In this document: piece by piece, positions 1 through 50,845 of the stretch | How positions within the stretch are numbered: position 1 is the stretch's first letter | How the letters are laid out: each line of letters opens with the position of its first letter | Assembly (NCBI GenBank): GCA_041651015.1 | Contig: JBAZKA010000002.1 | Span: 137,269-201,268, forward strand | Length of the DNA stretch: 64,000 nucleotides | From: Patescibacteria group bacterium | Lineage (GTDB): Bacteria > Patescibacteriota > Patescibacteriia > Magasanikbacterales > GWA2-37-8 | Reading direction: 5' to 3' | Translations under genes and position numbers: made by a program | The notes under the pieces: generated by a model | Database searches by the model: none | What the model saw: the letters and a program-made list of their open reading frames with translations, nothing else | What the model was told of the DNA's origin: nothing

Positions 1-464
1 ACACACAAGCCGTGGAAATTTTGGAGAAGTCCGGTGAAAAATTTGAATATCCGGTTGGCTGGGGTAAAGAACTGCAAACCGAGCATGAAAGATATCTGAC
101 TGAGGTGGTTTATAAGAAGCCGGTTTTTGTCACGGATTATCCCAAGGAGTTCAAAGCGTTTTACATGCGCCAAAATGATGATGGTAAAACCGTGGCTGCC
201 ATGGATTTGCTCGTGCCCGGTATTGGTGAAATTATCGGCGGCAGCCAGCGTGAAGAACGTTTGGCTAAATTGGAAACGCGTATGAAAGAATTAAACTTGA
301 ATCCGGATGATTACTCATGGTACTTGGATTTGCGCAAATACGGCGGTGTACCGCACGCGGGATTTGGCCTTGGCTTTGAACGCCTGATAATGTATTTAAC
401 GGGCATGGAAAATATCCGCGATGTGATTCCGTTCCCGCGGACGCCCAAGAACGCGGAATTCTAA
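1..464 (+). CDS. asnS: asparaginyl-tRNA synthetase, C-terminal fragment (5' part outside window)
   Basis: Class II aaRS motif 3 (GFGLGFERL) and AsnRS-type C-terminus [15 protein letters not shown]. Reading frame is open to the window edge. Confidence 0.8.
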
Positions 465-477
465 ATTAAAAAAATAA

Positions 478-516
478 ACACCGTTCGGATTATTACCGAT
501 CGGTGTTTTTTGTCGT
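478..516 (+). terminator. rho-independent terminator after asnS
   Basis: Imperfect GC stem acaccgttcgg/ccgatcggtgt followed by a T-run. Confidence 0.55.
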
Positions 517-835
517 ACTCTGTGGTCTGTGGTCACTTTGCTCGGACACGCGAATTTAGATATGAGATTACGACCAGTATGCCGAGCTCAATGATTAGAA
601 GTCCGGCCGGAATCATGGAAAAATACATTACTGTGTTTGTCTTTTGGTTGTCTTGCGTCGCAGTAGATACCAAAAAAGCGGTGACGACGACGAGGGCAAA
701 AATGGCCATTGTTAGATAACACAACGTGTAAATTTTGTTCGCTATAGATACAAACCTTGTTGTCATTGGGCGCATCCTTTCGTTTGAGCGAGCAATAGCT
801 GTAAAAAGAACGCTTACGGCATTGATATAATGTCA

Positions 836-1816
836 CTATTTTAGGTTCGGGTCAAGTGTTATAATTACCACCTCCGGTATGGCAAATAATCTAAGCGGCG
901 CGCCGGATTCACCCGCGCCCACTGAGATATAAATCGGCGAGCCGTTGTAATAATTCATACCACGATAGTATGAATTTTCCAGAATTGTCTGCGCACCGGC
1001 GAGAGGCCCCCAAAGCGGTATCCAAATTTGTCCGCCGTGGGTGTGTCCGGCGAGGGTGAGCGTAGGATACGCAAAATTCGCCGGGTAAGATAATATCCCG
1101 TCCGGGTTGTGAGTAATAAAGATTAGCGGTTTGTCTTCGTCCCAATTATTTAATTCCGAAAAATCCGGTTGTTTATTTTTCCAAATATCATCAATGCCGA
1201 ATAAGCAAATTTTTTGATTGTTTATTTCCGGACAGACGATATTATTTTTAAGTAAAGCAATACCCATTTCACGCATGCGATCGGCTAAAATTAGAGAACG
1301 ATCGCCGGTATGCTTCTCCGGTTTGTCAATAATGTGTCCGCCGATGCCGTATTCATGGTTGCCAAGAACGTAATATACAGGATAACGGCTGACCAAATTT
1401 GCCAGTGGTTCCAAATATTCGCTTTCGTCTTCAAAAGTTCCTTCGTTATCAATCAAATCTCCGCCAAGAATTACGATGTCCGGATCATTGGCAATAATTT
1501 TTTTTACGATTTTTTTCACCCAATCGGATTTTTTCCATTGGCCGACTTGGATGTCCGAGACAAAAGCGATCTTAATCTGGTGCTGTAATTTATTATCGTT
1601 TAATTCTACTTTCGTCGTTTTCAAAATAAATGGTTCCACGAGCGTAGAGTAAAAAGCAAGAAAAATTCCCAGAACAAGAATTGACAGACATAAAACCGAT
1701 AGTCGTCTGTGGCGCGCAAAAAATAATTCCGGTTTACGCCGGTCGCGGATAATAAAAAATATCATGATCGCCGCCACCGCGACATAACCGTATGTGATAA
1801 TGAGGAGAAAATTCAT
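836..1816 (-). CDS. membrane-anchored metallophosphoesterase (calcineurin-like)
   Basis: N-terminal TM helix. Phosphoesterase motifs GDLIDNEG, GNHEY and GHTHGGQ. Low GC like the host. Confidence 0.75.
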   Translation of the reverse strand: MNFLLIITYGYVAVAAIMIFFIIRDRRKPELFFARHRRLSVLCLSILVLGIFLAFYSTLVEPFILKTTKVELNDNKLQHQIKIAFVSDIQVGQWKKSDWVKKIVKKIIANDPDIVILGGDLIDNEGTFEDESEYLEPLANLVSRYPVYYVLGNHEYGIGGHIIDKPEKHTGDRSLILADRMREMGIALLKNNIVCPEINNQKICLFGIDDIWKNKQPDFSELNNWDEDKPLIFITHNPDGILSYPANFAYPTLTLAGHTHGGQIWIPLWGPLAGAQTILENSYYRGMNYYNGSPIYISVGAGESGAPLRLFAIPEVVIITLDPNLK

Positions 1817-2058
1817 AGTGCCCTTGAGTTCGTATTTTCCGAAATTGATGAGTTATACAAAATGGCTAAAACAACGATACCTGAATTGGGCGAAGCTGTC
1901 AATTCAATAGAAATGTGAGTTATTATTCCGAACTGGCCCCCACTGCATTGCCCTGATTACGTATTCATTAAAATCGCCAGGTTTTACAGTTCTGTTGTTT
2001 CAGCATAATAACTTCATCGACCTAGGAATCTATTGATTTTCAGTTCGTCAATGCCACA

Positions 2059-2883
2059 CTATTCCCACAAAGATATGCCCAGCATCTTGCTTACCATCGA
2101 ATCGTATGAAAAAAGTATATGGTTGGACATCATCGTGTTTTCTTGGATCCTATCGATTGTCCATGCAATTGCTTGTAAGTCAGGTTGTCTGATAGAAAAA
2201 GAAAAACTGCCAACCGTGAGATCTTCAACAGCGCCGGATTCTGAATTTTGAAAGATCATGCCATCAATGACCCGATAAATAAAACATTTTCCAGCAATAT
2301 GGATAAAATCAGGGCGTCTGTTAATGGGAATACTATGGTTAATTAAGTAGTATTCGTTGACGTGGTTAAATATTGTATCAGGGGCAATCGAGTCCGTTGC
2401 GTAGATTATTTTGACTGGCCAATTGTCATACTTCCCATATTTGAGCTGACTACTAATCCTTCCTTTAAGGTCTTTCACCGGTGGAATTGAAGCAATGCCA
2501 TCAAGTGCATCAAATAATTCTTTTTTATCTAATGTTGACTTAATGGAGACAACCCCAAGCGTCCCTTCTATCGGTGAAAATGATTTTCCTGATCCATCTT
2601 GATTGTGGAGGTTAAAACGCGGTGTGGTGTCAGTTGTGATGATAATATCGAGTTGCTTGGACTCCACGCCTTCTTCATCAAAAATGAAACCGCCGAAGAA
2701 AATATTGCATTTCGATGGGATGTGCTGTTTGAGAAATTCGGCATAGATTTTCTCTCTTGAGGTGCCTATGTCTGTGCAATTTCTAAAAACGGAAGCAGCC
2801 TTGGCTTCTCCACGAAGAACTTCGGCGACTTTCAGGTAGTATTCTCGCAATCTAAGGAAGATATTGTCATTTGTTTTATTCAT
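2059..2883 (-). CDS. hypothetical protein, possible nucleotidyltransferase-fold (weak)
   Basis: 274 aa. FFGGFIFDEEGVESKQLDIIITTD resembles a Gly-rich loop plus acidic strand of Pol-beta-like NTases, but the second acidic residue is not clear. Low GC. Last gene before the GC jump. Confidence 0.35.
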   Translation of the reverse strand: MNKTNDNIFLRLREYYLKVAEVLRGEAKAASVFRNCTDIGTSREKIYAEFLKQHIPSKCNIFFGGFIFDEEGVESKQLDIIITTDTTPRFNLHNQDGSGKSFSPIEGTLGVVSIKSTLDKKELFDALDGIASIPPVKDLKGRISSQLKYGKYDNWPVKIIYATDSIAPDTIFNHVNEYYLINHSIPINRRPDFIHIAGKCFIYRVIDGMIFQNSESGAVEDLTVGSFSFSIRQPDLQAIAWTIDRIQENTMMSNHILFSYDSMVSKMLGISLWE

Positions 2884-3144
2884 TATTTATCCTCCATGGC
2901 TAGAAAACTTTTCAATCTCTCCCTCCTTCGAACCCACTTATCCACAACATGAACACGGATCCGCCGTTTTAGCCCCCTCTCGGTTGTATTAAATATCAGC
3001 TACACTATTCAGCAAGCGATCACCGGGAGAGGACTACAAACAGAAATTTAGTTTTCGTTCTCACCTCAGATCGCGATTATTCAAATGGCTCTAGACAGGC
3101 CTATCCAATCGCAGAAGGGAGGTGAGATGCACAAACGATAACAG

Positions 3145-4333: not shown

Positions 4334-4823
4334 TCCTTCGCCGCGGTCGCGACGCTCACGCGATCGACGACCGGCTCCTATTCGCCGTCATACTCTTCCT
4401 AAAAGACGAGGAGCCTCGAACGGCCTAACAACGAGAAAACTGGCTAACCAACGGGCTGAAAACGCCACGCGTGCCGTGGGCTTCGCCCCCGACGTATTTC
4501 TGTCATCTAAGTGTGGTCCCGCCCGGGTCATCTCCCCTTCGGGTCGAGCCTCGGTCACCCCACTAAGAGACAGAAATACGTCGGGTGCCTGCGGCCCCAC
4601 GACACGCGGGCGGCGGGCTACCCCGAGGCCGACCGCGACACCGACCCCGCAGAGGCGGGGCGGGTCGCGTCGCCGGCCATCGGGTCCCAACGCCGAACGG
4701 GTGAACGGGGTGAAGAGAGTGCCTCAACATCCTACGGAGAAATCATGGCGCGCGGCCGGGCCGCGTTGGGCGTGGCTTCGCGCGTCCCCTTTACTTTTTC
4801 TATCCACTATCCAGCACCCCTCT

Positions 4824-5741
4824 ATGTCGACATCCCCCTACCGTCGCCCGGAGCAACCCGCCTCCGGCTTCATCCTCCAACCGCGGGACAGAAAAATCCT
4901 CAAGACAGTGGTCACACACCGATTCGTCCGCAGCGACCACGTCCGCGATCTGCTCTTCCCGGACAAGTGCCTGCGCGTCGTGCAAGTGCGGCTCCGCAAG
5001 CTGTGGGAGCACCGTTACCTCGCCCGCTACTTTGTACCCAAGATCTGGAACGTCCCCGAACCGGCCATGGTGCGCCCGGGCCAGCCGGTCTACGGCTTGG
5101 ACGAGGCCGGCGTGGCTCTCTTCGCCGACAGCGAGAACGCCCACGCGATCGTCGCGAAGTACCGAGCCGGCAAGGTGAGCAGCTCTTGCTTGGAGCACAA
5201 CCTCGTAGCGACCGATTTCCTCGTCAGCACGGCGTTGGCCTGCTCGGGTCGGAAGGATCTCCAACTCGTCGAGGCCGAGAGCGAGGCGAGCTTCTGGCAC
5301 AAGATCACCGAGTGGAAGGCCAAGGGCAACCGCGGGCAGTTCATCATCCCGGACTGCGGTGTCACGCTCGCAAACGAGAAGGGCGAGCGCCTCACGTTCT
5401 ATGTCGAGGTCGTTCGCGCCGATGTGAAGGGTGGCAACGGACACCTCATCCGGAAGCTCGATCACTACGTTAAGCTTTTACGCGAGGGGTTCTTCAAGAA
5501 GGTCTACGGCCACGATCACCTCCGCGCCGTGATCATCGCCACCACGTCAGGCAACCGCGCCGACAACCTGCGCGAACTCGCCAAGTCGCTCACGAACGGC
5601 CGGCGTCTGTTCTGGTTCGGCTCATTCCAGACCAAGGGAGAGGACGGCAGCAATATCTCCACGATCACGAGGGACACGATCCTCGCGAAGAAGTGGATGA
5701 CGGCCGACGGGGAGTTACTATCCATCGCCGAAGCAGTGTGA
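4824..5741 (+). CDS. replication-relaxation family protein
   Basis: N-terminal wHTH-like LQPRDRKILKTVVTHRFVRSDHVRDLLFP...VRLRKLWEHRYLAR typical of Replic_Relax plasmid/ICE proteins. ATG at 4824 inside the longer ORF 4476..5741. Confidence 0.5.
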   Translation: MSTSPYRRPEQPASGFILQPRDRKILKTVVTHRFVRSDHVRDLLFPDKCLRVVQVRLRKLWEHRYLARYFVPKIWNVPEPAMVRPGQPVYGLDEAGVALFADSENAHAIVAKYRAGKVSSSCLEHNLVATDFLVSTALACSGRKDLQLVEAESEASFWHKITEWKAKGNRGQFIIPDCGVTLANEKGERLTFYVEVVRADVKGGNGHLIRKLDHYVKLLREGFFKKVYGHDHLRAVIIATTSGNRADNLRELAKSLTNGRRLFWFGSFQTKGEDGSNISTITRDTILAKKWMTADGELLSIAEAV

Positions 5742-6271: not shown

Positions 6272-7558
6272 ATGACCATCACCCAACATCTGTCGCAAAC
6301 GGCCGAGGGGGATCCGCTCCTCATCCTCGGCGAGACCGTGTTCCGACATCGCCATCAGCGGTTCGGACTTCTGCCCGAGGATCGGCTTCGTCATCTCTGG
6401 CTCCTCGGCAAGACCGGCTGCGGCAAGTCCACACTCCTCGCGAACCTCGCCATCCAGGATCTGGAAGCCGGCAACGGATTCGCCCTCCTCGACCCGCACG
6501 GCGATCTCGTCGATGACGTCCTGCCGTTCGTGCCGCCGAATCGCATCAACAATGTGCTCCTTTTCGCGCCGGAAGATCGCGATTACCCAGTATCGTTCAA
6601 CGTCTTCCGCCGAGGCCGATCGCTCCATCCGGACACGGCGCTCCTCGCCTCGGGGCTGCTCTCGGTGTTCAAGAAGCACTGGGCGGATTCCTGGGGACCG
6701 CGGCTTGAGCACATTCTCAGAAACGCCATCCTCGCCGTGGCGAACGACCAGAGAGCGACGCTCCTCTTCCTCTACCGCTTCCTCACAGACGAGGCGCTCC
6801 GCGACAACGTGGTCGCCACCGTATCAGATCCGGTTGTCGCGGCGTTTTGGAAGAAGGAGTTCCCGGGCTACACCAAGGCGCTCCAGGCCGAGGCGATCGC
6901 CCCGGTTTTGAACAAGCTCGGCGCCTTTGTCGCGAACCCGATCATCCGCGCCATCGTTGGGCAGGAACGCTCACGCGTGGATTTCATCTCCATCATGGAA
7001 ACGAGGGGTATCATCTTTGCCAAGCTCCCGTCCGGACGCATCGGCGAGGACGCGAGCCGTCTCCTCGGCTCTCTCCTTCTCACCGCGATCCAGCTCGCGG
7101 CCATGGAGAGATCGCACCGAGAACCGACCTTCACGATCTACGCCGACGAGTTCCAGCACTTCGTCACCGATTCCCTTGCGACCATGCTCGCCGAGGCCAG
7201 GAAGTTCGGCCTCGGGCTCGTGCTCGCGCACCAGTACCTCGGCCAGCTACCAGTCACGGTGCGAGACGCACTTCTCGGCAACGTCGGGAGCGTCGTCTGT
7301 TTCCGCCTCGGCGCGCACGACGCCGAGATCCTCGCCCCGGAGTTCAACCCGCCGTTCGTGGAACACGATCTGCAGCACCTCGGTCGCTACCACGCCGCGG
7401 TGAAGATCCTTGCGAGGGGGGAGTCTCTCCGACCGTTCACGATGAGGACGTTGGAGATGAAGACACCGACGCTTGGAGCCGAGAAGAGGGTTGCGAGGTT
7501 GGAGACACAGGTGAGGAGACGATTCTGTGATTTAATCACACTGAACGTCCCAAAATGA
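6272..7558 (+). CDS. VirD4/TraG/TrwB-like P-loop ATPase (coupling-protein-like)
   Basis: Walker A LLGKTGCGKST, DPHGD motif (like the VirD4 DPKGE motif), Walker B IYADEF. Confidence 0.55.
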   Translation: MTITQHLSQTAEGDPLLILGETVFRHRHQRFGLLPEDRLRHLWLLGKTGCGKSTLLANLAIQDLEAGNGFALLDPHGDLVDDVLPFVPPNRINNVLLFAPEDRDYPVSFNVFRRGRSLHPDTALLASGLLSVFKKHWADSWGPRLEHILRNAILAVANDQRATLLFLYRFLTDEALRDNVVATVSDPVVAAFWKKEFPGYTKALQAEAIAPVLNKLGAFVANPIIRAIVGQERSRVDFISIMETRGIIFAKLPSGRIGEDASRLLGSLLLTAIQLAAMERSHREPTFTIYADEFQHFVTDSLATMLAEARKFGLGLVLAHQYLGQLPVTVRDALLGNVGSVVCFRLGAHDAEILAPEFNPPFVEHDLQHLGRYHAAVKILARGESLRPFTMRTLEMKTPTLGAEKRVARLETQVRRRFCDLITLNVPK

Positions 7559-7641: not shown

Positions 7642-8172
7642 ATGGACTGGAGACGACGAAGGCAGATCCGCCAGTTGGCTGATCGTGTGCGAGATGCCCT
7701 CAAGTTGGAAGGCCCCCCTTATGACGTCGAGCTAGCAGTAAAGCTTCTGAACGGCACTATCGTAGCTCCAACTGACTGGCTGACAGAAGCCCTTGTTCGC
7801 AAGAATGGCGAGTCCTTCATCATCGAGGCAACAAAAGCAGCGTCATCGGAACGACAGCGGTTCTCTATAGCTCATGAGTTGGGCCACTTGTTCCTTCACA
7901 TGGGATATCTGGTTGATATAGACACTTGGAACAGCATCAACGAATACCGCGATTCCCCCATGTACCGCAGGGGACATAGCGAAGAAGAATTCGAAGCCAA
8001 CGAGTTTGCCGCCGCCTTCCTCATGCCAGAATCTGACTTCCGAAAAGTGGCCGAAGAACACAAGGTCGGTTGCAGTTACCGAACAACGGACATCGCACAA
8101 AAATTCGGTGTCTCCATGCCAGCCGCCCAAAACCGCGGTAAATGGATAGGCCTTTTCGACTGGAATTCATAA
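7642..8172 (+). CDS. ImmA/IrrE-family zinc metallopeptidase
   Basis: HEXXH motif (AHELGHLFLH) followed by EANEFAAAFLMP, the downstream Glu motif of the ImmA/IrrE (DUF955) fold. Stop abuts the start of the next gene (8172/8173). Confidence 0.7.
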   Translation: MDWRRRRQIRQLADRVRDALKLEGPPYDVELAVKLLNGTIVAPTDWLTEALVRKNGESFIIEATKAASSERQRFSIAHELGHLFLHMGYLVDIDTWNSINEYRDSPMYRRGHSEEEFEANEFAAAFLMPESDFRKVAEEHKVGCSYRTTDIAQKFGVSMPAAQNRGKWIGLFDWNS

Positions 8173-9459
8173 GTGCCGAAAAATATAGAACTCATCCAGC
8201 AAGAATTGGGCTCGGCCCCTGTGGAAACCTCCGACCTGCCTCCTGCCCGCGTGTATCTCTTCATTTCGTTTGACTTAGTGAACTCTACAATTTTCAAACA
8301 GCGTGAAGAGAGTTGGCCCACGGTTCTTGGGACCTTCTACAGAAGAGCCGAGCATGGGATAAACGCTCGGGTCGCAGGCGCAACCGTTTGGAAGTACGCT
8401 GGCGATGAGGTTCTGTTCTGGGTCGCTCCATCATCGGCTGAAGAAATGTGCAAACAACTCGACGGCGCGTATCAGGTGCTGCAAGAGTTAGATCGTGAAA
8501 TGGACACTACCTCTAACCGTCGTCTTCGGGTGAAGGGCACCTGCTGGATAGCTTTAGCCGAGCCAGAAAGTCCAGAGAATTTGCGGAGCCCTGATAGACC
8601 CAAAGCACCCAATCTCATCATCTCCCAACCGCTCGAAGCGAATCCACCGACTCGTGATTTCGTCGGGCCTGATATTGATGCTGGATTCAGACTAGGTGCA
8701 TGCACGTTCAAGTCCACTTTTGCTGTGAGTGCTGAACTAGCGGCGGTTCTTTTAGATAAAGCGCCGATGCCAATCGCTAATAATCTTCATGTTGTCGGGT
8801 ACAAGAAATTGAAAGGTGTATGGAAGGATCGTTTCTACCCCATCGTTTGGTATCGCAAAGAGCTGGATAATGGCTTTGAATATGATGATAAATACGAGAA
8901 CGAAATGCTCGCCAATGGCATTGCAGAGAAGGAAAAAAAAGCAGCCAAGATCGAAGAACTGAAAGACGCTGTCCATAGCATTCGAACCGGATACGTTAAG
9001 CAGCTACTCGATGCCTTTGAACGACCAGCATTGGAAATGTCACCTACGCCGCGTCTGGAAGTACACTGTGCTGCAGCGTGTCGCCGTAGCAATGGCGACG
9101 TTTTGGTCGCCCAGCGCCAAGCAGATAAACGCATCCATCCGGAGAAGTGGGAGTTTGGTTGTGCTCAACTTCGACTCGGAGATACGTTTGAGGAAGCGCT
9201 CGCTCGAGATTACAGGGATGATTTCGGTGCTGAACTCAACTTCCCCGCCGACGCCCATGCACTGGCAACCTACAGTTTTGAACGCGATGGAAGGAAGATT
9301 CCTGGTGTCATTTTACTCGCGATTGTCACAAATCCCGAAGACTGCAAAGCACACAAGCATCAGAATATCCGCTGGATTAACCCCAGCGACCCACCACATG
9401 ATGTGGTCGAGAATGCTGTCCCCGATCTCGTGAAGGCGCTTTCTCGACTTGCGAGTTGA
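8173..9459 (+). CDS. class-III-nucleotidyl-cyclase-like domain fused to NUDIX hydrolase domain
   Basis: N-terminal F-x-D-L-x-x-S-T (FISFDLVNST), K-x-x-GD-x-x-L (WKYAGDEVLF) 44 aa later, and G-x-x-I-D-x-G-F-R-L (GPDIDAGFRL). C-terminal NUDIX-box-like GDTFEEALARDYRDDFGAE. See findings. Confidence 0.5.
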   Translation: MPKNIELIQQELGSAPVETSDLPPARVYLFISFDLVNSTIFKQREESWPTVLGTFYRRAEHGINARVAGATVWKYAGDEVLFWVAPSSAEEMCKQLDGAYQVLQELDREMDTTSNRRLRVKGTCWIALAEPESPENLRSPDRPKAPNLIISQPLEANPPTRDFVGPDIDAGFRLGACTFKSTFAVSAELAAVLLDKAPMPIANNLHVVGYKKLKGVWKDRFYPIVWYRKELDNGFEYDDKYENEMLANGIAEKEKKAAKIEELKDAVHSIRTGYVKQLLDAFERPALEMSPTPRLEVHCAAACRRSNGDVLVAQRQADKRIHPEKWEFGCAQLRLGDTFEEALARDYRDDFGAELNFPADAHALATYSFERDGRKIPGVILLAIVTNPEDCKAHKHQNIRWINPSDPPHDVVENAVPDLVKALSRLAS

Positions 9460-10101: not shown

Positions 10102-11358
10102 ATGACCGACTGGGTCGACTTCGCCGAGATCCGCGAAAGGGTTTCGCTCGAGCAGGTGCTCCTCGAGTTCTACGGACTCGACAACCTGCGCCGCGACAAC
10201 GCGAAGCTCATCGGGCCGTGCCCGGTGCACCTGGGCGACTCGAAACGAGCCTTTCACGCCGACCTCACGAAAAACGTCTGGCACTGCTTCACCGGCTGCC
10301 ACCGCGGCGGGAACCAGCTCGACCTCGTGGCGCTCAGGGAGGGGATCACCATCCGCGAGGCCGCGCTCAAGCTCAAGGCGTTCTTCCACCTCGACGAACG
10401 CGGCAGCACGGCTCGCTCTCAACAGGGCGCCGCCACCGCTCGCGCATCGCCGAAGGGATCATCTCCCTCTCAGTCATCCACTCCACCCCGTCGCTCCTCA
10501 TCCCGCACAGACACCGCCGCCCGACACGAACATCAGCGTGCATACGCCGAAAGCGATGGCGACGACTGCGATGCCGACGGAGAGGTCATCGCCGACGACG
10601 GCAACACCAACGCCACCGACGGTGCAACCGCGAGCTCAACCGCAGACACTGATCTTCCGATCAACCCGCCGCTCGACGTCGTCCTCAACCTGAAGGGAGA
10701 TCACCCGCATCTCGCAAAGGATCGCGGACTCGCTCCCGAGACGATCGCGCACTTCGGCGTCGGCTACTGCCACCGCGGCATCATGAGGGGTTGCATCGCC
10801 ATTCCGATCCACGACGAGATGAACAACCTCATCGCCTACGCCGGACGGCGCCTCAAGCCCCAGGACATCCGCGAGCTCGGCAAATACAAGCTGCCCAAGG
10901 GCTTCCGCAAGGATCGCGTCCTCTACAACCTCAATCGCGTGAAGGACGCGATGCCCGCCGAAGGCATCGTCCTCGTTGAGGGCTTCTTCACCGTGTTGAA
11001 GCTCCACGAGGCCGGCGTCCAGAATGCGGTCGCGGCCATGGGTTCGGAGCTGTCCGACGCTCAGGCGCAGCTCCTGATCGACACCCCCGGCGTGATCATC
11101 TTGTTCGACGGCGACAACGCCGGACGCCTCGGCGCGATAAACGCGAGAGACAAACTCACCGCGCTCGGCATCACTGTCCGCGTCGCGAATCTGCCCGAGA
11201 ACACGGAGCCGGACGATCTTTCACCCAAGGCGCTGCGCTGGCTCGTGAACGGCATGAAGTTGCTCGACATCGCCGAGGTCGGCTTCTCGTTCCGAGAACC
11301 GCGCGCCGGTGCAAGCGCAGACACCGTCACCGCATCGCCGAAAGAAATGGAGGAATGA
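10102..11358 (+). CDS. DNA primase (CHC2 zinc finger + TOPRIM)
   Basis: CHC2 zinc finger CPVHLGDSKRAFHADLTKNVWHCFTGC. TOPRIM segment VLVEGFFTVLKLHEAGVQNAVAAMGS...ILFDGDNAG. Low-complexity linker in the middle. Confidence 0.75.
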   Translation: MTDWVDFAEIRERVSLEQVLLEFYGLDNLRRDNAKLIGPCPVHLGDSKRAFHADLTKNVWHCFTGCHRGGNQLDLVALREGITIREAALKLKAFFHLDERGSTARSQQGAATARASPKGSSPSQSSTPPRRSSSRTDTAARHEHQRAYAESDGDDCDADGEVIADDGNTNATDGATASSTADTDLPINPPLDVVLNLKGDHPHLAKDRGLAPETIAHFGVGYCHRGIMRGCIAIPIHDEMNNLIAYAGRRLKPQDIRELGKYKLPKGFRKDRVLYNLNRVKDAMPAEGIVLVEGFFTVLKLHEAGVQNAVAAMGSELSDAQAQLLIDTPGVIILFDGDNAGRLGAINARDKLTALGITVRVANLPENTEPDDLSPKALRWLVNGMKLLDIAEVGFSFREPRAGASADTVTASPKEMEE

Positions 11359-13759: not shown

Positions 13760-13786
13760 AGCCCGCCAAAAATGGCGGGCTTTGTA
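13760..13786 (+). terminator. hairpin after SprT-like gene, at the boundary of the low-GC islet
   Basis: Stem agcccgcc/ggcgggct with a weak T-run. Confidence 0.4.
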
Positions 13787-13871
13787 TGTCACACCTGTAC
13801 CCCTTGACACTTTTTTATTTTTCATATTTTATTTCTATTCTATTTCGGTTTTTCCAAACAGGAGGTACATT

Positions 13872-16718
13872 TTGTCGTTTGATTTTCAAACAATAGTTTC
13901 CGACATTTTAGAAAAACAATCTCTTGTTAGTTCTCCTTACCACAAAGCTTATCACGCATATATTGTAAATTGGCTAACAAACAGATATAAAGACAAATAT
14001 CCATATGTTACGCTTGTTGGTGTCGGTGGAACCGGTGTAGTTCTCGGCTTCTCTGACACCAGTTCTTCTCCTTTGAAATGTATTAAATACCCTGTTTCTT
14101 CATTTGGCACGACTGGCAATTTTACTCCAGGGCACGTCATCGAAACAGAAGCAAATCGTCTTACACAATTAAGTCATCAGAATATTTTACACGTTGACGA
14201 AGTAGGTAGTGTTCCTGTTGTTGATAATAGTGATGATTTCTCTCTAATCGACAACGAGGGCGAGAAGATCCCTTTCTTTGTAATGCCCTTCATACCCTGT
14301 AAAAATCTTGCTGATTTTCTTAAAGAAGATAGACCTATCGACCAAATCGTTTTGCTTACCATTCTCGCCCAAATTGCGGAAGCACTTGATTACGTACATC
14401 ATCACCATTTAATTCATCTCGATATCAAACCTGAAAACATTTTTGTTGATTTCACTTCTCCTGAGATTATTAACGCCAAACTCGCTGATTTTGGTTCGTG
14501 CAAAGAAATTTCTGTTGGTTCCACTTCCAAATCCATTGTCCTTTGCACAGATGGATATATACATCCAGATCTTTTAAACATTATTAAACAAGGGAACGAT
14601 AGCGATGCAAGACGTTTTCGCAATAAAGTTCCTAAAAGCATTTTTGATTCGAGATTTGATCGCTATTCTTTCGGAGCAACGATTTTGGATTCTGTTTACT
14701 TGTTTCTATCCAACAGTGTAGGAAGATCCGTCTCTCCCTATATGCTTCGTGCACTTCAGTTTATTTCTTTGAAGTGCGCCGATGGTTATGCAAATCACAT
14801 GGCAACACATCCTCGTCGCAAATATCTCGCACCTCCTGATCTTTATAACGATTTACTTTCAAAGAAAGTATCCTATGCTAGCACTACAGAAGTTCTCCGC
14901 GACATTCAAGCCGTTATCTCCAATGGGGATGGTTTCACAGAGCAGGAACTTCTTGATAGTTCCCAGGGAATCGTTTGTTTACCACCACGGTCTTTTGCGC
15001 CGTTCCCAGATAGAGTGCAACAGACTGTCGATTCCACGCCCGTTCGTCGCCTTTCAAGTATTTCACAGTTGGCTCTTGTATATCATGTATATCCAGGCGC
15101 TTCTTACACAAGAAAAGAACATACAATAGGTGTTTTTGCGACAGCCGCAGTTCTTTTGCGCCACATCATTAAAGATAGCAGAAATCCACTCGGCGTGCTA
15201 CTGCTTACACTAAAATGGCAGAGAGCTATACTGTTAAGCTCTCTCTGGCACGATATATCACATATTCCCTTAATGCATGAATTCGAAGATTCGATACCAG
15301 AATTGAGTCAAGGGTACTATTTTGCAAAAATTATGGAAAAGGACTTTGGTTCATTGGCTTTTCAAAAGGAAATTGATACTATTTTGGCTCTATGGAATCT
15401 TACCAGAATTGATGTTGTTTTGGTTCTCGGCAAAAAAAAGAACTTCGATTATCGTAAATGGAATCTTGACGAAGCCCAATGGGATTTTTTATGGGAACTT
15501 CCCGAAAGGCAGCTTTCTGCAAGTATTCTAAACAGTGCTGTTGATGCAGACAAAATGGATTATCTTCAAAGAGACGCTTTACATGTAGGTGTTCAATATG
15601 GTCACACAGTAGATCTTGAGAGGCTTTTCCGCAGAGCAACAGTCGCACTTACAGTGAATACAAATAAAAGGGATGGAACCACGATTACTTCCTTTAAATG
15701 CAGTTTAGGCTTCTGGAGTACAGGTGCAGCAGCTGCAGAAGCTGTAATTGAAGCACGACACAACATGTTCAATCAGGTTTATGCACATAGAACAGTTCGT
15801 GCTTCCAGGGCTATGCTGAATTATATTGCATGGAATTGGCGTTGTAGTATTGAGGAAGGAAAGACATATCGCCCTAATAGTTTGTTTGTAAGAGGTAGCT
15901 CTTTGTGCCCTAGCGGAAGCATCCTATCGCAGATGAGAAAACAGACTCAAAAGCAAATGCAAATGGATGAAATTGGTTCCACTGCCTTTGCTGAAAATAG
16001 AACACTGAATGTTTCCGAAAAACGTTTTGAAGATAAGCTGCGTGATAATTTGCCATATTTGGAATCGTCACTGATAAGATGGTTGGCGGCGCAATCCGGG
16101 AAAGACGAAGCGGTATTAATGGCCGAGTCGTTGATACAAAGAGAATTGTATAAGGAATTATTTGTAATAAAAATTGCGAAAGTTCAACAGTTGTTTGATG
16201 CAATATACTCAACAAAAAAGGACACCGAGAATGAATCAAAGTATGAAATGAACTTTCGGTGCAATAATTGGTTAGGGCTTATTGATTTCATAGAAGCAAA
16301 ACTTAAGGAATACATACAAAATGAAGAAAAAAACAAAAGCGTGGCTATATCAATGGAGCAACTAGAGAAATCGAAGTTGCCTTGTTTATTGGTTGATTTT
16401 GCGTTGCCTAAAACAATGCGTGGGCAACCTATACTATACCTGGTGAGCGAAGAAATGAGATCTGGTGTTGGTTGGGAAAAAGTTAGAAAACAAAATCCAA
16501 GCGGTGGAAAAGAAACTTTATCTGGCATGATCGTTGAGAAGTCGAGAATTTATGAGTTGTTCGGGGGAGGGGTATCGGAAAGCAAGTGGTTAACACCTGT
16601 GATTAGAGTATTCGCGTCGAAAGAGATAGCAAATGTATTACGCAGACATCTTCACGAAGAAACAGTAATCGAATGGCTAAATAGATATTTACAGGATGGA
16701 AGAGCTGTCGTGGAATAA
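13872..16718 (+). CDS. Hanks-type Ser/Thr protein kinase fused to dGTPase/SAMHD1-like HD domain
   Basis: Kinase motifs GVGGTGVV (Gly loop), HLDIKPENIF (catalytic loop), KLADFGS (DFG). C-terminal HD motifs H...LWHDISH and VDADKMDYLQRDALHVGV (dGTPase/SAMHD1 signature). aggagg RBS then TTG at 13872. The ORF is open from 13782. GC is ~38% inside a 65% GC region. Confidence 0.6.
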   Translation: MSFDFQTIVSDILEKQSLVSSPYHKAYHAYIVNWLTNRYKDKYPYVTLVGVGGTGVVLGFSDTSSSPLKCIKYPVSSFGTTGNFTPGHVIETEANRLTQLSHQNILHVDEVGSVPVVDNSDDFSLIDNEGEKIPFFVMPFIPCKNLADFLKEDRPIDQIVLLTILAQIAEALDYVHHHHLIHLDIKPENIFVDFTSPEIINAKLADFGSCKEISVGSTSKSIVLCTDGYIHPDLLNIIKQGNDSDARRFRNKVPKSIFDSRFDRYSFGATILDSVYLFLSNSVGRSVSPYMLRALQFISLKCADGYANHMATHPRRKYLAPPDLYNDLLSKKVSYASTTEVLRDIQAVISNGDGFTEQELLDSSQGIVCLPPRSFAPFPDRVQQTVDSTPVRRLSSISQLALVYHVYPGASYTRKEHTIGVFATAAVLLRHIIKDSRNPLGVLLLTLKWQRAILLSSLWHDISHIPLMHEFEDSIPELSQGYYFAKIMEKDFGSLAFQKEIDTILALWNLTRIDVVLVLGKKKNFDYRKWNLDEAQWDFLWELPERQLSASILNSAVDADKMDYLQRDALHVGVQYGHTVDLERLFRRATVALTVNTNKRDGTTITSFKCSLGFWSTGAAAAEAVIEARHNMFNQVYAHRTVRASRAMLNYIAWNWRCSIEEGKTYRPNSLFVRGSSLCPSGSILSQMRKQTQKQMQMDEIGSTAFAENRTLNVSEKRFEDKLRDNLPYLESSLIRWLAAQSGKDEAVLMAESLIQRELYKELFVIKIAKVQQLFDAIYSTKKDTENESKYEMNFRCNNWLGLIDFIEAKLKEYIQNEEKNKSVAISMEQLEKSKLPCLLVDFALPKTMRGQPILYLVSEEMRSGVGWEKVRKQNPSGGKETLSGMIVEKSRIYELFGGGVSESKWLTPVIRVFASKEIANVLRRHLHEETVIEWLNRYLQDGRAVVE

Positions 16719-16721
16719 AAA

Positions 16722-16748
16722 ATCCCCAAGAAAACAAACTTGGGGAGA
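16722..16748. terminator. bidirectional hairpin between convergent genes
   Basis: Hairpin ccccaag-aaaacaaa-cttgggg flanked by A/T runs. Confidence 0.5.
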
Positions 16749-16769
16749 AAGAATTCGATGCCTTTGATT

Positions 16770-17510
16770 TCAAGAATCGATCGGATTCAAACCAAGAAGA
16801 AAGAATCCAACATTATCGTCTCTGTTTCCGTCCCATACATTGCAACGAAGACCTGATTTCTCAAAAGTAATTGTCACTACTCGGCCACGTGAGTATTTAT
16901 CGTCGGTGGATACACTTAAAAGAGAGTCGGGCGCTCGACAGCCGGTTTCTCTAAAATGGGAGAAAACGAGAGGGACAATAACCGAAATAGAACCTAAAGA
17001 AAGGCAATGGACTTCTGGAAGACCGTTGAGTTCGCGTAAGATCCGTAAATAGTCATTCTGTTCTGCAAACGAACGACTAGTACTCGATTTAGCAACGACT
17101 GGAATCCAGAAAGCAATTGCTGGCAAAGATAACTCTTTACATTGATGTAGAGCTTCCTTATTTAAAAGAACTCGACCGCCACAAAAGGGGCCTGTTTTAC
17201 TGCCGTTTTCAAACAGACTGAATCCCTTGCGTAAATGCCAACAACAAGGGCCGTTGTAATCCACAGATCTTGAGTAACTTCTCCAGGCTGATACGGTTGA
17301 GGAAGGCTCACAGCAAGCATTTCTGTGAAGAAATGTTACTGCTTCCTCATCTGTAAGTGGAGTGGCGAAGGTATATTTCTTTTCTTCTGAAAGAATATTC
17401 CCTATCATGGATTTCAATAGCACTCCATTGTTGATTATAAAACGACGTTCGTCCACGTTCAAAGAGAGAAACAAATTGGAGATTTCCAAGAATGACACGT
17501 CTTTCGGCAT
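16770..17510 (-). CDS. hypothetical protein (Cys/His-rich)
   Basis: 246-aa low-GC ORF convergent with the kinase-HD gene. CCEPS...CCWH motifs. No recognised domain. Confidence 0.45.
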   Translation of the reverse strand: MPKDVSFLEISNLFLSLNVDERRFIINNGVLLKSMIGNILSEEKKYTFATPLTDEEAVTFLHRNACCEPSSTVSAWRSYSRSVDYNGPCCWHLRKGFSLFENGSKTGPFCGGRVLLNKEALHQCKELSLPAIAFWIPVVAKSSTSRSFAEQNDYLRILRELNGLPEVHCLSLGSISVIVPLVFSHFRETGCRAPDSLLSVSTDDKYSRGRVVTITFEKSGLRCNVWDGNRDDNVGFFLLGLNPIDS

Positions 17511-17979
17511 GACACGCTCCTTGTAAATGTACAGACAGTAAAATTTTACTGTCGGAAGGTGCGAATCGTCGCGTCCTCCACTATTTCGTCCAGTTGATAA
17601 ATAAAAGCAGTCTTAAAATACGACTTGATTGTTGAACTTCATAGTGGAAGACATGAACTGAGACACATTAAGTGTATCACAAACAAGGAACATATGTCAA
17701 ATACAATACATGGTCACCCTGATGTCAAGCATTGGGGCTTGGCGCGATTTAGTCAAGACCCAACTACAATACCAGACAGCGCTATCGAAAAGACCATAGG
17801 GCACTTGAAAATATAAAAGATTAAAACTGCTTGCTGTTATAAAAATAGCTTTATCCATCTATATTACAATATTACCGTCCTGAGATGCACCGCAAGAAGC
17901 TTGCGAATGCTCAATAATATGAAAAGCGATTTTGTCTTTTTACAAAACAGGTATCGCATCATTGAGAATATGAAGGTTT

Positions 17980-19069: not shown

Positions 19070-22402
<3,333 letters not shown>

Positions 22403-22579
22403 CTTCTCTTCCTCCCCGAGCCGCGCCTCAGGCGCACGAGCGTTCACGGTGTTTCCGCACGGCCCGCTGTTGTCCCATCTCTCAAGGCGCACTCCCGCCG
22501 CCGATGCCGGGACCATCCAGGGGCACCGGCGGACGGGACGTGCGAGGACCCCCGCGTTCAAAGCGGCCGATGCCGCCGA

Positions 22580-24821: not shown

Positions 24822-25967
24822 TCATTGGATCTTTATCGGATAGTAACCAGCGGGACCTTTTTCATTTTTATCGATAGTAAAGTCGATGGTCATTCCACGT
24901 GACCACGCGATGGATTCGTCGAGTAGAATGAAGAATTTTTTGGTCCCCCCATCCTTCGTTTCACAAGATGCAAATCCGTAACCTTTTATAACTGTATCCA
25001 ATCTCCCTCTTAGAACTTCTCCAAATCTAATCACATAAGTAGCACGCCGACTTTTTCCTTTCGCAAGAGAAAGTGCAGGTATAAACCAGACTTCTTGGTC
25101 TACCTCTATTCCTAGTCCATTCTGAAACAAACAGTCTGGATTAAACCAGAAATCTTCATCTCCGGGGCCTGAGATGAAACCATAAGTATCTTTTAAGGAA
25201 GAAATGCGTCCCATTATCCACTCGATGTTTTCAGATTGATTTTCCCTGGGACTGATTTTAATCGATTCATCGTTTTGTTTCGATGGTGTATTGGCCAACA
25301 CAATGGTCTGGCCAAGACTCGTTTTTGTAATATAGGGTGTGCTGACTCCATATCTTTGGGCCGCCCACATTATTTCGTAATATCCAATAGGACGGGAGAA
25401 ACCTTTCGCTGTGACAAATTCCTCGTTGCCTTGGTAGTCGGAAACTTTTCGTTTAGGAGACACGTTTCTTCCGAGCCGGGATGAAATTCTATTCATCGCG
25501 GCAGCGGCTACTGTATCATTGTCGACAAAAACAGCGTTAGATTTTGCTGCACTGCAAAGACGAAAAGCCCTATCAGCTACTGTGCCTATATAGTCCTTGC
25601 TTCCTTCGGTTACATCAAATTCGATTACTTCACCATAAGACACACCAACCGAACAACTGCATGAAATCTGGTTTTGCTCCCTGGCAACTGCCATGGATTC
25701 CTGAATAAATATTGACCAGTTGATAGCTTCCGCCACATGATCCTCGGAAAAGACTGACATAGCACCATCACCAAGAAACTTTACTATTGTGCCTTTGTAC
25801 TCTTTGATGCTATTAAAAAGCAAATCGAAAAACCATGCATATTGTGTGAGCCATGTTGCTTCCGACTGTTGCTCTTTCATGCTCGTGGAATCGGTAAGAT
25901 CAACAGCGACTATTGTTTTCATAACTCTTGAATTTGGATCGCGAAAAGTTTCATGTAATGATGTCAT
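24822..25967 (-). CDS. class-III-nucleotidyl-cyclase-like domain fused to two cold-shock (CSD/OB) domains
   Basis: Cyclase-like VAVDLTDST, KFLGDGAM and GTVADRAFRL. Two CspA-like modules: DTYGFISGPGDEDFWFNPDCL...GIEVDQEVWF and IKGYGFASCETKDGGTKKFFILLDESI...TIDFTIDKNEKGPAG. GC ~40%. Confidence 0.55.
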   Translation of the reverse strand: MTSLHETFRDPNSRVMKTIVAVDLTDSTSMKEQQSEATWLTQYAWFFDLLFNSIKEYKGTIVKFLGDGAMSVFSEDHVAEAINWSIFIQESMAVAREQNQISCSCSVGVSYGEVIEFDVTEGSKDYIGTVADRAFRLCSAAKSNAVFVDNDTVAAAAMNRISSRLGRNVSPKRKVSDYQGNEEFVTAKGFSRPIGYYEIMWAAQRYGVSTPYITKTSLGQTIVLANTPSKQNDESIKISPRENQSENIEWIMGRISSLKDTYGFISGPGDEDFWFNPDCLFQNGLGIEVDQEVWFIPALSLAKGKSRRATYVIRFGEVLRGRLDTVIKGYGFASCETKDGGTKKFFILLDESIAWSRGMTIDFTIDKNEKGPAGYYPIKIQ

Positions 25968-38127: not shown

Positions 38128-39369
38128 TTAGACACTCACCACGCCTTCCGTTGCCGTACTGTTGCCGTAAACACGCGCCCCGTTGCCATCCAAGACGGCA
38201 ACGGCGTCGGTCACCGATTCCGGTGACAGGTGCGCGTAGCGGAGCGTCATCTGCATGGTGGCGTGCCCGAGTTGTTCCTGAATCGTCTTGAGCGGCACGC
38301 CGCGCATCGCGAGATGCGAGGCGTAGGTGTGCCGCAGAACGTGCCAGCCGATCTCGCGCACGTTCGCGAGCTCGCAAACATGCCGCAGCGCCCAATCCGA
38401 GCTGTTCGAAGAAATCGCCGAGCCGTCTGCTGTTGAAAACACGAGCTGTGCGCCGATCGTGCGACGCGCCGCGAGCGCGCTGTCCGTTGTGTCGTTCACG
38501 GTGCCGCCATCCTCGTACGCCCGCCGCCGTTCATTTTCACGCGCGGCTCGCTTGCACTGTTCGATCACGGCAACGGTTGCCGGCGTGAGGTACACGGTGC
38601 GCACCTTGTTGTTCTTCGGCGAACCGATGATGCCCTTGGCCACGGCGCGCGAGATGCGCAGATACGGCGATCGTCCCTTGAGCTGGACATCGCCCCACCT
38701 GAGTTCGAACAGCTCCCCGCGCCTGAGTCCGGTGCGCATGGCGACGAAGAACGGCGCGTGCCACAGCGGCGCTTTCGCGGCTGCGGTCGCGAGAAGCCGC
38801 TCCGCCTCCTCGAACGAGAGGTAGTCGAACGACGGTGGTGGGCACTTTGGAAAACGGCAGCGCGGCGCGCGCTCGAGATGTCCGACTTCGGTGGCGTACC
38901 ACAAGAGCCGCGACAAGACGGCGAGCGCGTTCTTCACGGTCTTGGGCGAGAGCCCCGAGGCGAGCAGGTCTTTCTTCATCTTGTCGATGTCGAGCGTGTT
39001 GATCTCATCGAGCCGCTTCAATCCCATGGCCGGCAGGATGTAGAGCCGGAGCATCGATTGTTTGGAGGTCACCTCGGACGGCTTGTTCTCGGTCTTCGCG
39101 TACAACTCGATGAACACTTTTGAGAACGCTTCGACCGTCGGCATTTCTTCTTGTTCTTCCGCTCCTTTCTCGCGGTACGTGCCGTCGCTGAGCGCCCGGA
39201 AAATCGCGCGCTCCTCGGCCTCGGCTTCGCGCCGAGTCGTGCCTTGAGCGACGCGCCGAATGCGTTCGCGGCGGCCGTCCGCGTGTCTGTATGCAAAGTC
39301 GATCAAAAGAATCTCCCGCACCGTGCCGGTCTTTTTGTCGGTGCGATTTTCGCGTCTCACGCTCATCAC
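38128..39369 (-). CDS. tyrosine recombinase / phage-type integrase
   Basis: C-terminal catalytic region HVLRHTYASHLAMRGVPLKTIQEQLGHATMQMTLRYAHL (R..H..R..Y). N-terminal SAM-like domain. Confidence 0.85.
   Translation of the reverse strand: MMSVRRENRTDKKTGTVREILLIDFAYRHADGRRERIRRVAQGTTRREAEAEERAIFRALSDGTYREKGAEEQEEMPTVEAFSKVFIELYAKTENKPSEVTSKQSMLRLYILPAMGLKRLDEINTLDIDKMKKDLLASGLSPKTVKNALAVLSRLLWYATEVGHLERAPRCRFPKCPPPSFDYLSFEEAERLLATAAAKAPLWHAPFFVAMRTGLRRGELFELRWGDVQLKGRSPYLRISRAVAKGIIGSPKNNKVRTVYLTPATVAVIEQCKRAARENERRRAYEDGGTVNDTTDSALAARRTIGAQLVFSTADGSAISSNSSDWALRHVCELANVREIGWHVLRHTYASHLAMRGVPLKTIQEQLGHATMQMTLRYAHLSPESVTDAVAVLDGNGARVYGNSTATEGVVSV
38146..38168. repeat. 23-bp direct repeat copy 2
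   Basis: See copy 1. Overlaps the last ~8 codons of the integrase. Confidence 0.5.
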
Positions 39370-40676: not shown

Positions 40677-41032
40677 ATGTGGATCCTGAACGGGTTGAGC
40701 ACACTGAGGCCGCAGACCGGGCAGTTCACGTAGGGCGCGATCGGCGCCCTACATTCCGGGTTTTCGCATTTCAGGATGGACGAGTTTTCGTAGGTGTAGC
40801 CGCACGAGGTGCACTCGTACACCTGACCGACGAGCGAAAAGACATGACCGCGAGGGCAAGTGACGACACCGCCGCGAATGGCGCTTCGCGCTCCCCACAG
40901 CCCGACGATGAGCTTGAAGACAAAACGCAGACCACTGAGCAACCAGAACGCGATCTCTGTCATCGTAACGACGACATTCGCGGCCAGGGTGACGAGAAAC
41001 TTCACGATGTTGAAAACGTTCTTCATGGTCAA
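40673..41032 (-). CDS. membrane protein with C-terminal zinc ribbon
   Basis: Two TM helices then CPRGH...CTSCG...CENPEC...CPVCG. Confidence 0.4.
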   Translation of the reverse strand: MTMKNVFNIVKFLVTLAANVVVTMTEIAFWLLSGLRFVFKLIVGLWGARSAIRGGVVTCPRGHVFSLVGQVYECTSCGYTYENSSILKCENPECRAPIAPYVNCPVCGLSVLNPFRIHI

Positions 41033-50718: not shown

Positions 50719-50744
50719 TGTCCTATCCGCTGAACGACAAGGGC
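50673..50744 (-). tRNA. tRNA-Arg (anticodon TCG)
   Basis: Manual cloverleaf: acceptor GCCCTTG/CAAGGGC, anticodon loop CTTCGAA, T-arm GGGGG-TTCGACT-CCCTC. Confidence 0.7.
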
Positions 50745-50772
50745 GTTTAAAACCCGCTTTCGCGGGTCTTTG

Positions 50773-50844
50773 TGGGTCGCCAGGGATTCGGACCCTGGAC
50801 CTTGTCCTTAAGAGGGACCTGCTCTACCAACTGAGCTAGCGACC
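50773..50844 (-). tRNA. tRNA-Lys (anticodon CTT), atypical T-loop
   Basis: Acceptor GGGTCGC/GCGACCC, D-arm GCTCAGTTGGTAGAGC, anticodon loop CTCTTAA. T-loop reads TCCGAAT (C at position 55). Confidence 0.55.
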
Positions 50845-50845
50845 C

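Follow-up and report, generated by a model that had tools for sequence, protein, structure and literature searches.

A conserved fusion of a Hanks-type kinase and a SAMHD1-like HD phosphohydrolase as a candidate nucleotide-depletion immune protein in a mobile region of a Patescibacteria-labelled genome

Nucleotide depletion is an antiviral strategy common to bacteria and humans, and the cyclin-dependent kinases CDK1/2 with cyclin A control SAMHD1 at T592. How the toxicity of a deoxynucleoside triphosphate (dNTP) triphosphohydrolase (dNTPase) is kept off until infection is, to our knowledge, established for very few systems, Clover being one of them. In Clover, the toxicity of the dNTPase CloA is restrained by a dedicated regulator, and CloA senses dTTP (PMC12265719). 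A dCTP deaminase with an N-terminal kinase domain, described via a predicted nucleotide-binding motif, needs both domains for defence, and a defensive role of EF1143-type enzymes was only speculated upon in the same study (Tal et al., bioRxiv 10.1101/2021.04.26.441389). The partners listed for dGTPase domains in a 2026 survey of such fusions are SAM, NLR, TIR, CARD, death, and SIR2; the term 'kinase' is absent from it (PMC13519002). Here, we analyzed a window of 64,000 nucleotides from a Patescibacteria group bacterium (assembly GCA_041651015.1, contig JBAZKA010000002.1, positions 137,269 to 201,268), and describe a gene at window positions 13872..16718 on the forward strand, whose 948-aa product (NCBI MFA5127793.1, annotated only as 'protein kinase') joins a Hanks-type Ser/Thr kinase to an HD phosphohydrolase of the SAMHD1/EF1143 type. 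It belongs to a diverse, horizontally moving, and so far uncharacterised family, several members of which lie beside known anti-phage systems, and we regard this kinase-HD protein as a promising candidate for a novel immune protein that depletes nucleotides under kinase control. No description of a Hanks-kinase::SAMHD1-like fusion was found in the literature searched, which was not exhaustive, or among the PADLOC 2.0 models.

Comparison with the described systems placed the kinase-HD protein next to several of them and inside none. Like the defensive dGTPases (Sp-dGTPase; Tal et al.) and Escherichia coli Dgt, it is an HD-superfamily protein with a predicted dNTP-degrading activity, encoded by a single gene and found in defence islands, but it belongs to another HD branch and carries a kinase domain, which those enzymes lack. 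It shares with the dCTP deaminase fusion the layout of one polypeptide with a kinase-like N-terminus and a C-terminus that depletes, or here would deplete, nucleotides. The kinase domain of the defensive deaminase has a nucleotide-kinase-like fold and is not of the Hanks type, and its effector is a zinc deaminase, whereas the candidate effector of the kinase-HD protein is an HD hydrolase. Stk2, PD-T4-6, PglW, and MAD6 do have a Hanks-type kinase domain but no HD domain. The PADLOC models mad6 and PD-T4-6 matched our kinase domain with E values of 1e-21 to 1e-24, a likeness limited to the generic kinase fold (residues ~70-265 of the 978-aa open reading frame, ORF) and no better than that of Pfam Pkinase; membership in PD-T4-6 or Stk2 was thus rejected, as there was no full-length similarity beyond this fold, and the NCBIfam scores were far below the family cut-offs. 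Membership in a Clover-type system was also rejected, because no adjacent nucleotidyltransferase partner was conserved in about 20 family loci; in Clover, the small-molecule signal comes from a separate nucleotidyltransferase gene, CloB, whereas in the kinase-HD family the kinase is fused in cis. The CDK-SAMHD1 pair offers a conceptual parallel, a Ser/Thr kinase modulating an antiviral SAMHD1-type enzyme, but CDK acts in trans and is eukaryotic.

The kinase domain was located at 14007..14780 (+), in the N-terminal third of the protein. It scored 81.8 bits with Pfam PF00069 (Pkinase; gathering threshold, 31.7 bits; E = 7e-23), and the family profile matched PknB and other kinases at 1e-31. A first-pass annotation of the window, made from the letters alone, had read a complete Hanks-type N-terminus here, and all the motifs it named were present. 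These were the Gly loop GVGGTGVV (residues 50-57 of the 948-aa protein, 14019-14042), the catalytic loop HLDIKPENIF (residues 182-191; HLDIKPEN at 14415-14438), in which the pattern H182-L-D184-x-K186-xx-N189 was read, and D206-F-G208 (14487-14495); K72 of strand beta3 (14085-14087), E93 of helix alphaC, and T226..H231-P232-D233 as the P+1/APE-like segment completed the set. In a local alignment of 161 family members, on which the conservation counts given here are based, K72, E93, D184, K186, N189, and D206 were kept in 151-156 of 152-156 aligned sequences. The catalytic-loop His is followed by Leu in the window protein, and Arg was never found at this place across the 161 members, indicating a non-RD (not Arg-Asp) kinase. 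On these residues, the domain is apparently active and catalytically competent.

The core of the HD phosphohydrolase and its C-terminal lobe spanned 14949..16715 (+), i.e., the C-terminal ~590 residues. Pfam HD_assoc_2 matched the window protein with E = 9e-6, and a phmmer comparison of the C-terminal half with the PDB retrieved Rhizophagus irregularis, mouse, and human SAMHD1, EF1143, and Aq_1910 at 1e-13 to 1e-10. A 17-sequence family profile matched the SAMHD1/EF1143-like structures more strongly (1e-41 to 6e-32), and the AlphaFold2 model of the window protein had a predicted local distance difference test (pLDDT) score of 83.4 and a predicted template modelling (pTM) score of 0.85. The HD half is, therefore, of the SAMHD1/EF1143 type, with a SAMHD1-like fold. 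An assignment to the Dgt-type dGTPases was ruled out: no NCBIfam dGTPase model matched (E ≤ 0.01), and the HD half hit 0 PADLOC families at E ≤ 1, while the positive control for the PADLOC dGTPase model, a neighbour gene in one homologous locus (L017), matched it at 2.7e-92. With respect to SAMHD1 of human, Caenorhabditis elegans, and R. irregularis, the kinase-HD protein has an N-terminal protein kinase instead of the SAM domain; the bacterial HD dNTP triphosphohydrolases EF1143, BT4208, and Aq_1910 have no extra N-terminal domain, and the C-terminal lobe of the kinase-HD protein is longer than that of the SAMHD1/EF1143 enzymes.

Both HD motifs pointed out earlier, LWHDISH (residues 458-464) and VDADKMDYLQRD (residues 557-568), were present. 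The metal ligands were almost invariant: H417 (R414/H417 at 15111-15122) in 161/161 members, H460 in 157/161 and D461 in 161/161 (H460-D461 at 15249-15254, within LWHDISH), and D560 in 158/161 (D560-K561...Y564...D568 at 15549-15575, within VDADKMDYLQRD). Human SAMHD1 residue numbers were assigned by motif alignment. On this basis, the dNTP contacts were present in the window protein as R414 (R164), L400 (L150), K561 (K312), Y564 (Y315), D568 (D319), R629 (R366), and Y637 (Y374). The equivalents of R164, H215, K312, Y315, D319, R366, and Y374 were kept in 151-161 of the 161 members, and L400 was invariant in the 17-sequence alignment. Since kinase and HD catalytic residues are near-invariant across the family, purifying selection acts on both active sites. 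The proposed covalent fusion was, thus, upheld as an intact one, with the four HD metal ligands and all the kinase catalytic residues in one reading frame not split by any frameshift.

The family was then delimited by an exhaustive profile search of 1.84 billion representatives, with clusters at 50% identity. At least 150 clusters matched the whole-length family profile, all with E ≤ 4e-162, nearly all of those listed in a single stretch and 850-950 aa long; the window protein covered profile positions 6-889 of 892, also in one stretch. A word-indexed search gave 17 clusters with the same architecture. According to these matches, the kinase-HD fusion is a conserved family and not a one-off, hidden under generic database names such as 'protein kinase' and 'HD superfamily phosphohydrolase'. 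Of 80 loci retained after a survey of 185,579 species genomes, at least 13 carried a family member. The hosts spanned at least 7 phyla, including Lentisphaerota (Victivallis), Desulfobacterota, Acidobacteriota, Actinomycetota, Pseudomonadota, and Planctomycetota, and there was one Methanoregula archaeon. In that metagenome-assembled genome (MAG), the gene (L014, 9851-12472) was full length, encoding 873 aa, with a guanine-plus-cytosine (GC) content of 33% against 50% in the rest of the locus; this full-length archaeal copy implies transfer between domains of life. In 19 of 20 loci, the gene was poorer in GC than the remainder of its locus, the difference reaching 27 points; a sign test on the first 16 of them gave p = 0.0005.

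A 469-aa kinase-only relative (P0215), considered as a natural split gene, was rejected as such, because it proved to be a frameshifted copy beside insertion sequence (IS) elements: in its locus (L095, 10244-12683), the gene was broken into three frames next to an IS1595-type Zn-ribbon gene and a DDE transposase, and it is either a decaying gene or the outcome of long-read indel errors. The fused architecture was not found in 50,697 phage or 72,556 plasmid records, where only weak kinase-only or HD-only matches were obtained. The spread over many phyla, the foreign GC, the broken copy beside IS elements, and the lack of a phage or plasmid record are, together, what one expects of an accessory or defence gene that is often transferred. 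The nearest stand-alone HD relatives were from Planctomycetota, with ~443 aa and 31-38% identity over the HD core. When 41 stand-alone relatives were compared with the fused family, the residues specific to the latter were P358 and E359 (100%), at the kinase-HD junction, and T590 (15639-15641), which is Thr in 89% of the fused family and Cys in the stand-alone relatives. The three are candidate interface or regulatory positions, as their distribution suggests; T590 counts here only as a family-specific conserved Thr, and not as a counterpart of SAMHD1 T592.

We then inspected the neighbourhoods of the homologues. No neighbour gene was conserved across about 20 family loci, indicating that the kinase-HD gene is a single-gene unit. 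Some homologues lay beside defence genes: BREX genes (BrxL, PglZ, PglX) were directly adjacent in a Thermoanaerobaculia MAG (L013), bSEFIR was adjacent in Ca. Anammoxibacter (L019), a DISARM-like helicase, DUF1998, and a methylase with DUF4917 were found in L001-3, and a CBASS E2 with a patatin, an AAA ATPase, and a caspase-helicase in L004. A C5-methyltransferase was a neighbour in L028, and a 1626-aa helicase was encoded near another family member. Genes of deoxynucleotide metabolism recurred as neighbours, too. A Dgt-type dGTPase (L017, 12636-13820) lay 23 bp downstream of the kinase-HD gene on the same strand, a dCTP deaminase (L093, 975-1550) 41 bp upstream of it, and Nuc_deoxyrib_tr genes, nucleoside 2-deoxyribosyltransferase-like, were present in two loci (L004, 9783-10412; L094, 822-1328).

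These observations led us to a reading to which we give slightly less than an even chance: that the kinase-HD protein is a single-protein, horizontally transferred defence enzyme depleting dNTPs under kinase control. It is based on the architecture, the intact frame, the conservation of both catalytic sites, the fold, the patchy spread, the foreign composition, the defence and deoxynucleotide neighbours, and the lack of a partner; that the gene is cargo of a mobile region also bearing CapP-like, cyclase-NUDIX, and PycC-like genes was counted in its favour as well. The HD domain would be the effector, hydrolysing dNTPs or a closely related deoxynucleotide, and the resulting depletion would starve replicating phage or plasmid DNA. 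The fused kinase would restrain the toxic HD activity and switch it upon infection, the means being a cue from the phage or else auto- or trans-phosphorylation inside an oligomer, and this control would parallel that of SAMHD1 by CDK at T592. We infer from the above that dNTPs are the substrate, that defence is the role, and that the kinase regulates the HD domain rather than other proteins. Kinase-based phage sensing is known in other systems, e.g., Stk2; the defensive dNTP-depleting enzymes, the dCTP deaminase fusion, and the regulated dNTPase of Clover are further precedents. A more ambitious version is possible but distinctly less probable than an even chance: a novel single-polypeptide immune class of bacteria and archaea, in which a SAMHD1-type dNTPase is switched by a covalently attached non-RD kinase similar to IRAK, RLK, and RIPK, which would make it the bacterial equivalent of SAMHD1 under phospho-regulation, with E359 and T590 as the interdomain switch and the Q480 subclade of the window protein, described below, carrying a re-engineered catalytic His.

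Several observations weigh against the depletion of dNTPs in defence. According to the Clover preprint (PMC12265719), enzymes of this class need a His-Glu (HE) dyad to hydrolyse dNTPs. The H-E of the family consensus aligns to the K-H-E of mouse SAMHD1, the dyad corresponding to SAMHD1 H233-E234, but in the window protein it is replaced by Q480-G481 (15309-15314). Position 480 was His in 143/161 members and Gln in 14/161, i.e., the 13-member subclade of the window protein, whose other members are 38-41% identical to it, and one other sequence. Stand-alone relatives had His at the equivalents of both 464 and 480 in 40/40 cases. In addition, the equivalents of the SAMHD1 allosteric sites, through which nucleotides drive tetramerisation, were only partly conserved (D137 is D, E, or N, and Q142 and R145 vary), and no phage-sensing domain was identifiable in the kinase-HD protein. 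Defence genes were directly adjacent or within a few genes in about 6 of 20 loci, in a hand count of a small sample with no matched control, and about half of the examined loci (L005, L008, L009, L090, L091) had neutral or housekeeping surroundings; L090, for example, has tRNA synthetase genes, L009 a two-component system, and L008 sigma factors.

The loss of the dyad is to be seen together with position 464, the equivalent of SAMHD1 H210, where the fused family also departs from the SAMHD1/EF1143 enzymes: it was Gln in 106 and His in 52 of the 161 members, i.e., Gln in two thirds of the family, whereas the window protein and its subclade, with Q-G and not H-E at the dyad, keep His there. The pairs at 464/480 were Q/H in 101, H/H in 39, H/Q in 13, and Q/Q in 1. 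The fused family seems, by this count, to tolerate the loss of either His, apparently not of both, and this pattern hints that the general acid/base has moved, not that the site is dead; the hint is weak, as essentially one evolutionary event underlies it. Dyad-dependent dNTPase chemistry is, accordingly, less certain for the window protein than for most of its relatives. The dNTPase activity put forward in the first-pass annotation agrees with the metal ligands and dNTP-contact residues, but it is uncertain in the window protein itself, more so than that annotation assumed, because Q-G replaces the dyad.

SAMHD1-type enzymes are allosterically driven by (d)NTPs, and the roles of the two halves may also be read the other way around. 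The kinase would be the effector, phosphorylating host or phage proteins upon infection and so bringing about an abortive infection like that of Stk2 and PD-T4-6, whereas the HD domain would mainly sense nucleotides, mediate oligomerisation, or serve as a secondary effector, reading a dNTP disturbance caused by the phage. We consider this unlikely, although it is served by the kinase residues being as strictly conserved as the HD ones, by the matches to the PADLOC kinase-defence models, by the missing HE-dyad His in the window subclade, and by the precedent of CloA as a dTTP sensor (PMC12265719). The PADLOC matches, however, reflect the generic kinase fold and were no better than Pfam Pkinase at 7e-23, and metal ligands and substrate-contact residues that are near-invariant argue for catalysis and not mere binding.

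A non-immune role in dNTP homeostasis, with a signalling kinase coupling growth or the cell cycle to dNTP degradation, as in CDK-SAMHD1 or Dgt in Caulobacter, appears improbable. The housekeeping-type loci L090, L009, and L008 agree with it, as do the dCTP deaminase and dGTPase neighbours and the nearest HD-only relatives, the ~443-aa proteins of Planctomycetota, which look single-copy. The spread of the kinase-HD family is, on the other hand, extremely patchy for such a role (at least 13 members in the 80-locus set given above, in many phyla and an archaeon), and the foreign composition in 19/20 loci, the copies in mobile elements and defence islands, and the broken copy beside IS elements speak against it too.

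It is more improbable that some other substrate is used by the HD domain, or at least by that of the Q480 subclade, so that no dNTP depletion would take place; NTPs, nucleic acid, and signalling or modified phage nucleotides would be the candidates. The change of His to Gln at the HE dyad and of Glu to Gly in the window protein would suit this alternative, and Gln at the H210 equivalent in 106/161 members, against His in 40/40 stand-alone relatives, suggests a remodelled site in the fused family. Nevertheless, the equivalents of the deoxyribose and triphosphate contacts (L150, Y315, Y374, R164, K312, and R366) are conserved, and at least one His at 464/480 is almost always kept, consistent with a retained chemistry.

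Returning to the gene of the candidate defence protein, the uninterrupted maximal ORF of the window list ran from 13782 to 16718 (+) and encoded 978 aa, in keeping with the 950-980 aa proposed at first, but the likely start is at 13872 rather than 13782. The ribosome-binding site AGGAGG and TTG start noted earlier were found at 13860..13865 and 13872, with 6 nt between them as read in the sequence, both the JGI and NCBI gene calls gave 948 aa, and the starts of homologues coincided with this TTG (MSWDFQ in P0005, LSFDFQ in the window protein). Because of this spacing, these calls, and these aligned starts, the gene most likely begins at TTG 13872 and yields a product of 948 aa; the 30 extra hydrophobic codons of the 978-aa ORF are translated AT-rich promoter or leader DNA. 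A consensus promoter scan flagged no promoter for the gene, and a TTGACA at 13805-13810 lacked a good -10 hexamer. The gene had a GC content of 39.6%, against 61% in the 5-kb flanks and up to 0.65 in single windows. It lies in a low-GC islet (13790..17975, 39.7% GC) inside a mobile element of 60-63% GC, and the islet is bounded precisely by the terminators of two convergent element genes. The left edge is marked by the intrinsic terminator of an upstream SprT-like gene (13760..13781, +, terminator scan), where GC fell from 0.57 to 0.28 within 100 bp; the drop took place within 100 bp on both sides. Only short, chance-level repeats, and no att-like direct repeats, were found flanking the islet.

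The islet also holds a 246-aa orphan gene (16770..17510, -), convergent with the kinase-HD gene and provided with its own AGGAG, and ~460 bp of AT-rich non-coding DNA (17511-17975), where no Rfam match was obtained. Between both genes there is a hairpin (16723..16746, -15.9 kcal/mol, z = -5.0), with an A-run on the plus side and a T-run on the minus side. The first-pass annotation had it as the terminator of the kinase-HD gene; the hairpin does exist, but, since the T-run is on the minus strand, it is a better terminator for the 246-aa gene. The convergent 246-aa gene was also there as announced, with 9 Cys in its product. It is, however, an orphan: no Pfam, PADLOC, or NCBIfam model matched the protein, a search of 5.8 billion clusters returned only itself, and its single-sequence AlphaFold2 model was unusable (pLDDT 33). 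It was, thus, rejected as a conserved partner of the kinase-HD family, as it has no homologue.

A toxin/addiction module serving stabilisation of the mobile element or competition between elements, with the 246-aa protein as the antidote, is very improbable, because that protein has no homologue at all, no neighbour is conserved in about 20 loci, and the gene pair is convergent and not operonic, even if both genes share one islet of conjugative-element-like DNA and a similar composition (tetranucleotide r = 0.56-0.70), and an unregulated dNTPase or kinase would be toxic. As for the provenance of the islet, an origin from host-like DNA (tetranucleotide r 0.40-0.45) or from the high-GC blocks (0.44-0.47) was considered, and it was assignable to neither; its signature was closest to that of a low-GC cargo patch at 45-49 kb (r 0.78). 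An 808-aa ORF (46376-48802, +; 39% GC) with no Pfam or PADLOC match lies in this most islet-like region and may be cargo that came from the same source.

The islet had been described as sitting in 65% GC DNA, and this is locally true (60-65%), but the high-GC DNA proved to be a mobile element in a genome of ~45% GC. Segments 1-3000 and ~50.8-64 kb of the window had 42-45% GC and a mutual tetranucleotide r of 0.85-0.94, and carried RNase III and tRNA genes. Between them lies a mosaic integrated mobile region of ~47 kb (3200-50750), with 60-63% GC blocks and interspersed low-GC cargo. It encodes a Replic_Relax relaxase (4476-5741), a type IV coupling protein (T4CP)-like ATPase (6272-7558), a primase (10102-11358), a tyrosine integrase (38128-39369), a second T4CP-like ATPase (41029-42609), and a large serine recombinase with Resolvase and Recombinase domains (49087-50718, +), and the high-GC blocks also carry DUF6573, RadC, and SprT-like genes. 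At its 3' end, the recombinase gene adjoins or overlaps the first of two tRNA genes, tRNA-Arg(tcg) and then tRNA-Lys(ctt) (50672-50845, -); the mobile region probably integrated at this junction and has its right boundary there. In view of the mobility genes it bears and of the matching 42-45% GC host-like DNA on both sides, the 60-65% GC DNA is integrated conjugative-element-like DNA, and the islet is nested cargo within it. The upstream high-GC block had no plasmid relative in the collection of 72,556 records.

Other genes of the window were of interest in their own right. At 7642-9459 (+), in a GC dip of 0.47-0.52, a gene for an M78 peptidase matching PADLOC CapP (1e-27) immediately precedes one for a 428-aa cyclase-NUDIX protein; the C-terminus of the latter is a NUDIX domain (PADLOC PDC-S07, 7e-11), and its N-terminus looked cyclase-like on reading only, with no model match. 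This pair is possibly a regulated nucleotide-signalling defence module. A 381-aa protein at 24822-25967 (-), in a low-GC patch at 24.4-27 kb, gave a weak class III cyclase match (Guanylate_cyc 6e-4; PADLOC PycC 1.3e-9). In the host-like DNA, at 836-2883 (-), a gene for a DUF6602 protein (PADLOC PD-DExK 2.6e-20; NucC-like nuclease 6e-11) adjoins one for a calcineurin-like metallophosphoesterase, and these neighbours may form a defence pair. The high-GC block right of the islet encodes a predicted secreted protein of 1163 aa (19070-22561, -), with Big_13, MopE metal-binding motifs, and long acidic D-[ST]-D repeats, unusual for a Patescibacteria-labelled genome. The source MAG bears the label Patescibacteria group bacterium (the contig has 241 kb), and the very different GC contents raise the question of a chimeric assembly or mis-binning.

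For a MAG labelled as Patescibacteria, a group with small genomes, a 47-kb mobile region with defence-like cargo is notable. Joining a nucleotide-depleting effector to a domain that senses or regulates is, as an idea, not surprising in itself. If the proposed function is true, the finding would be an addition to the catalogue of single-gene defences, and it would mean that recruitment for prokaryotic conflict extended beyond the Dgt branch to that of SAMHD1/EF1143. The kinase-HD family would then be a compact, tractable model for the phospho-control of dNTPases, and a possible evolutionary parallel to the control of SAMHD1 by CDK.

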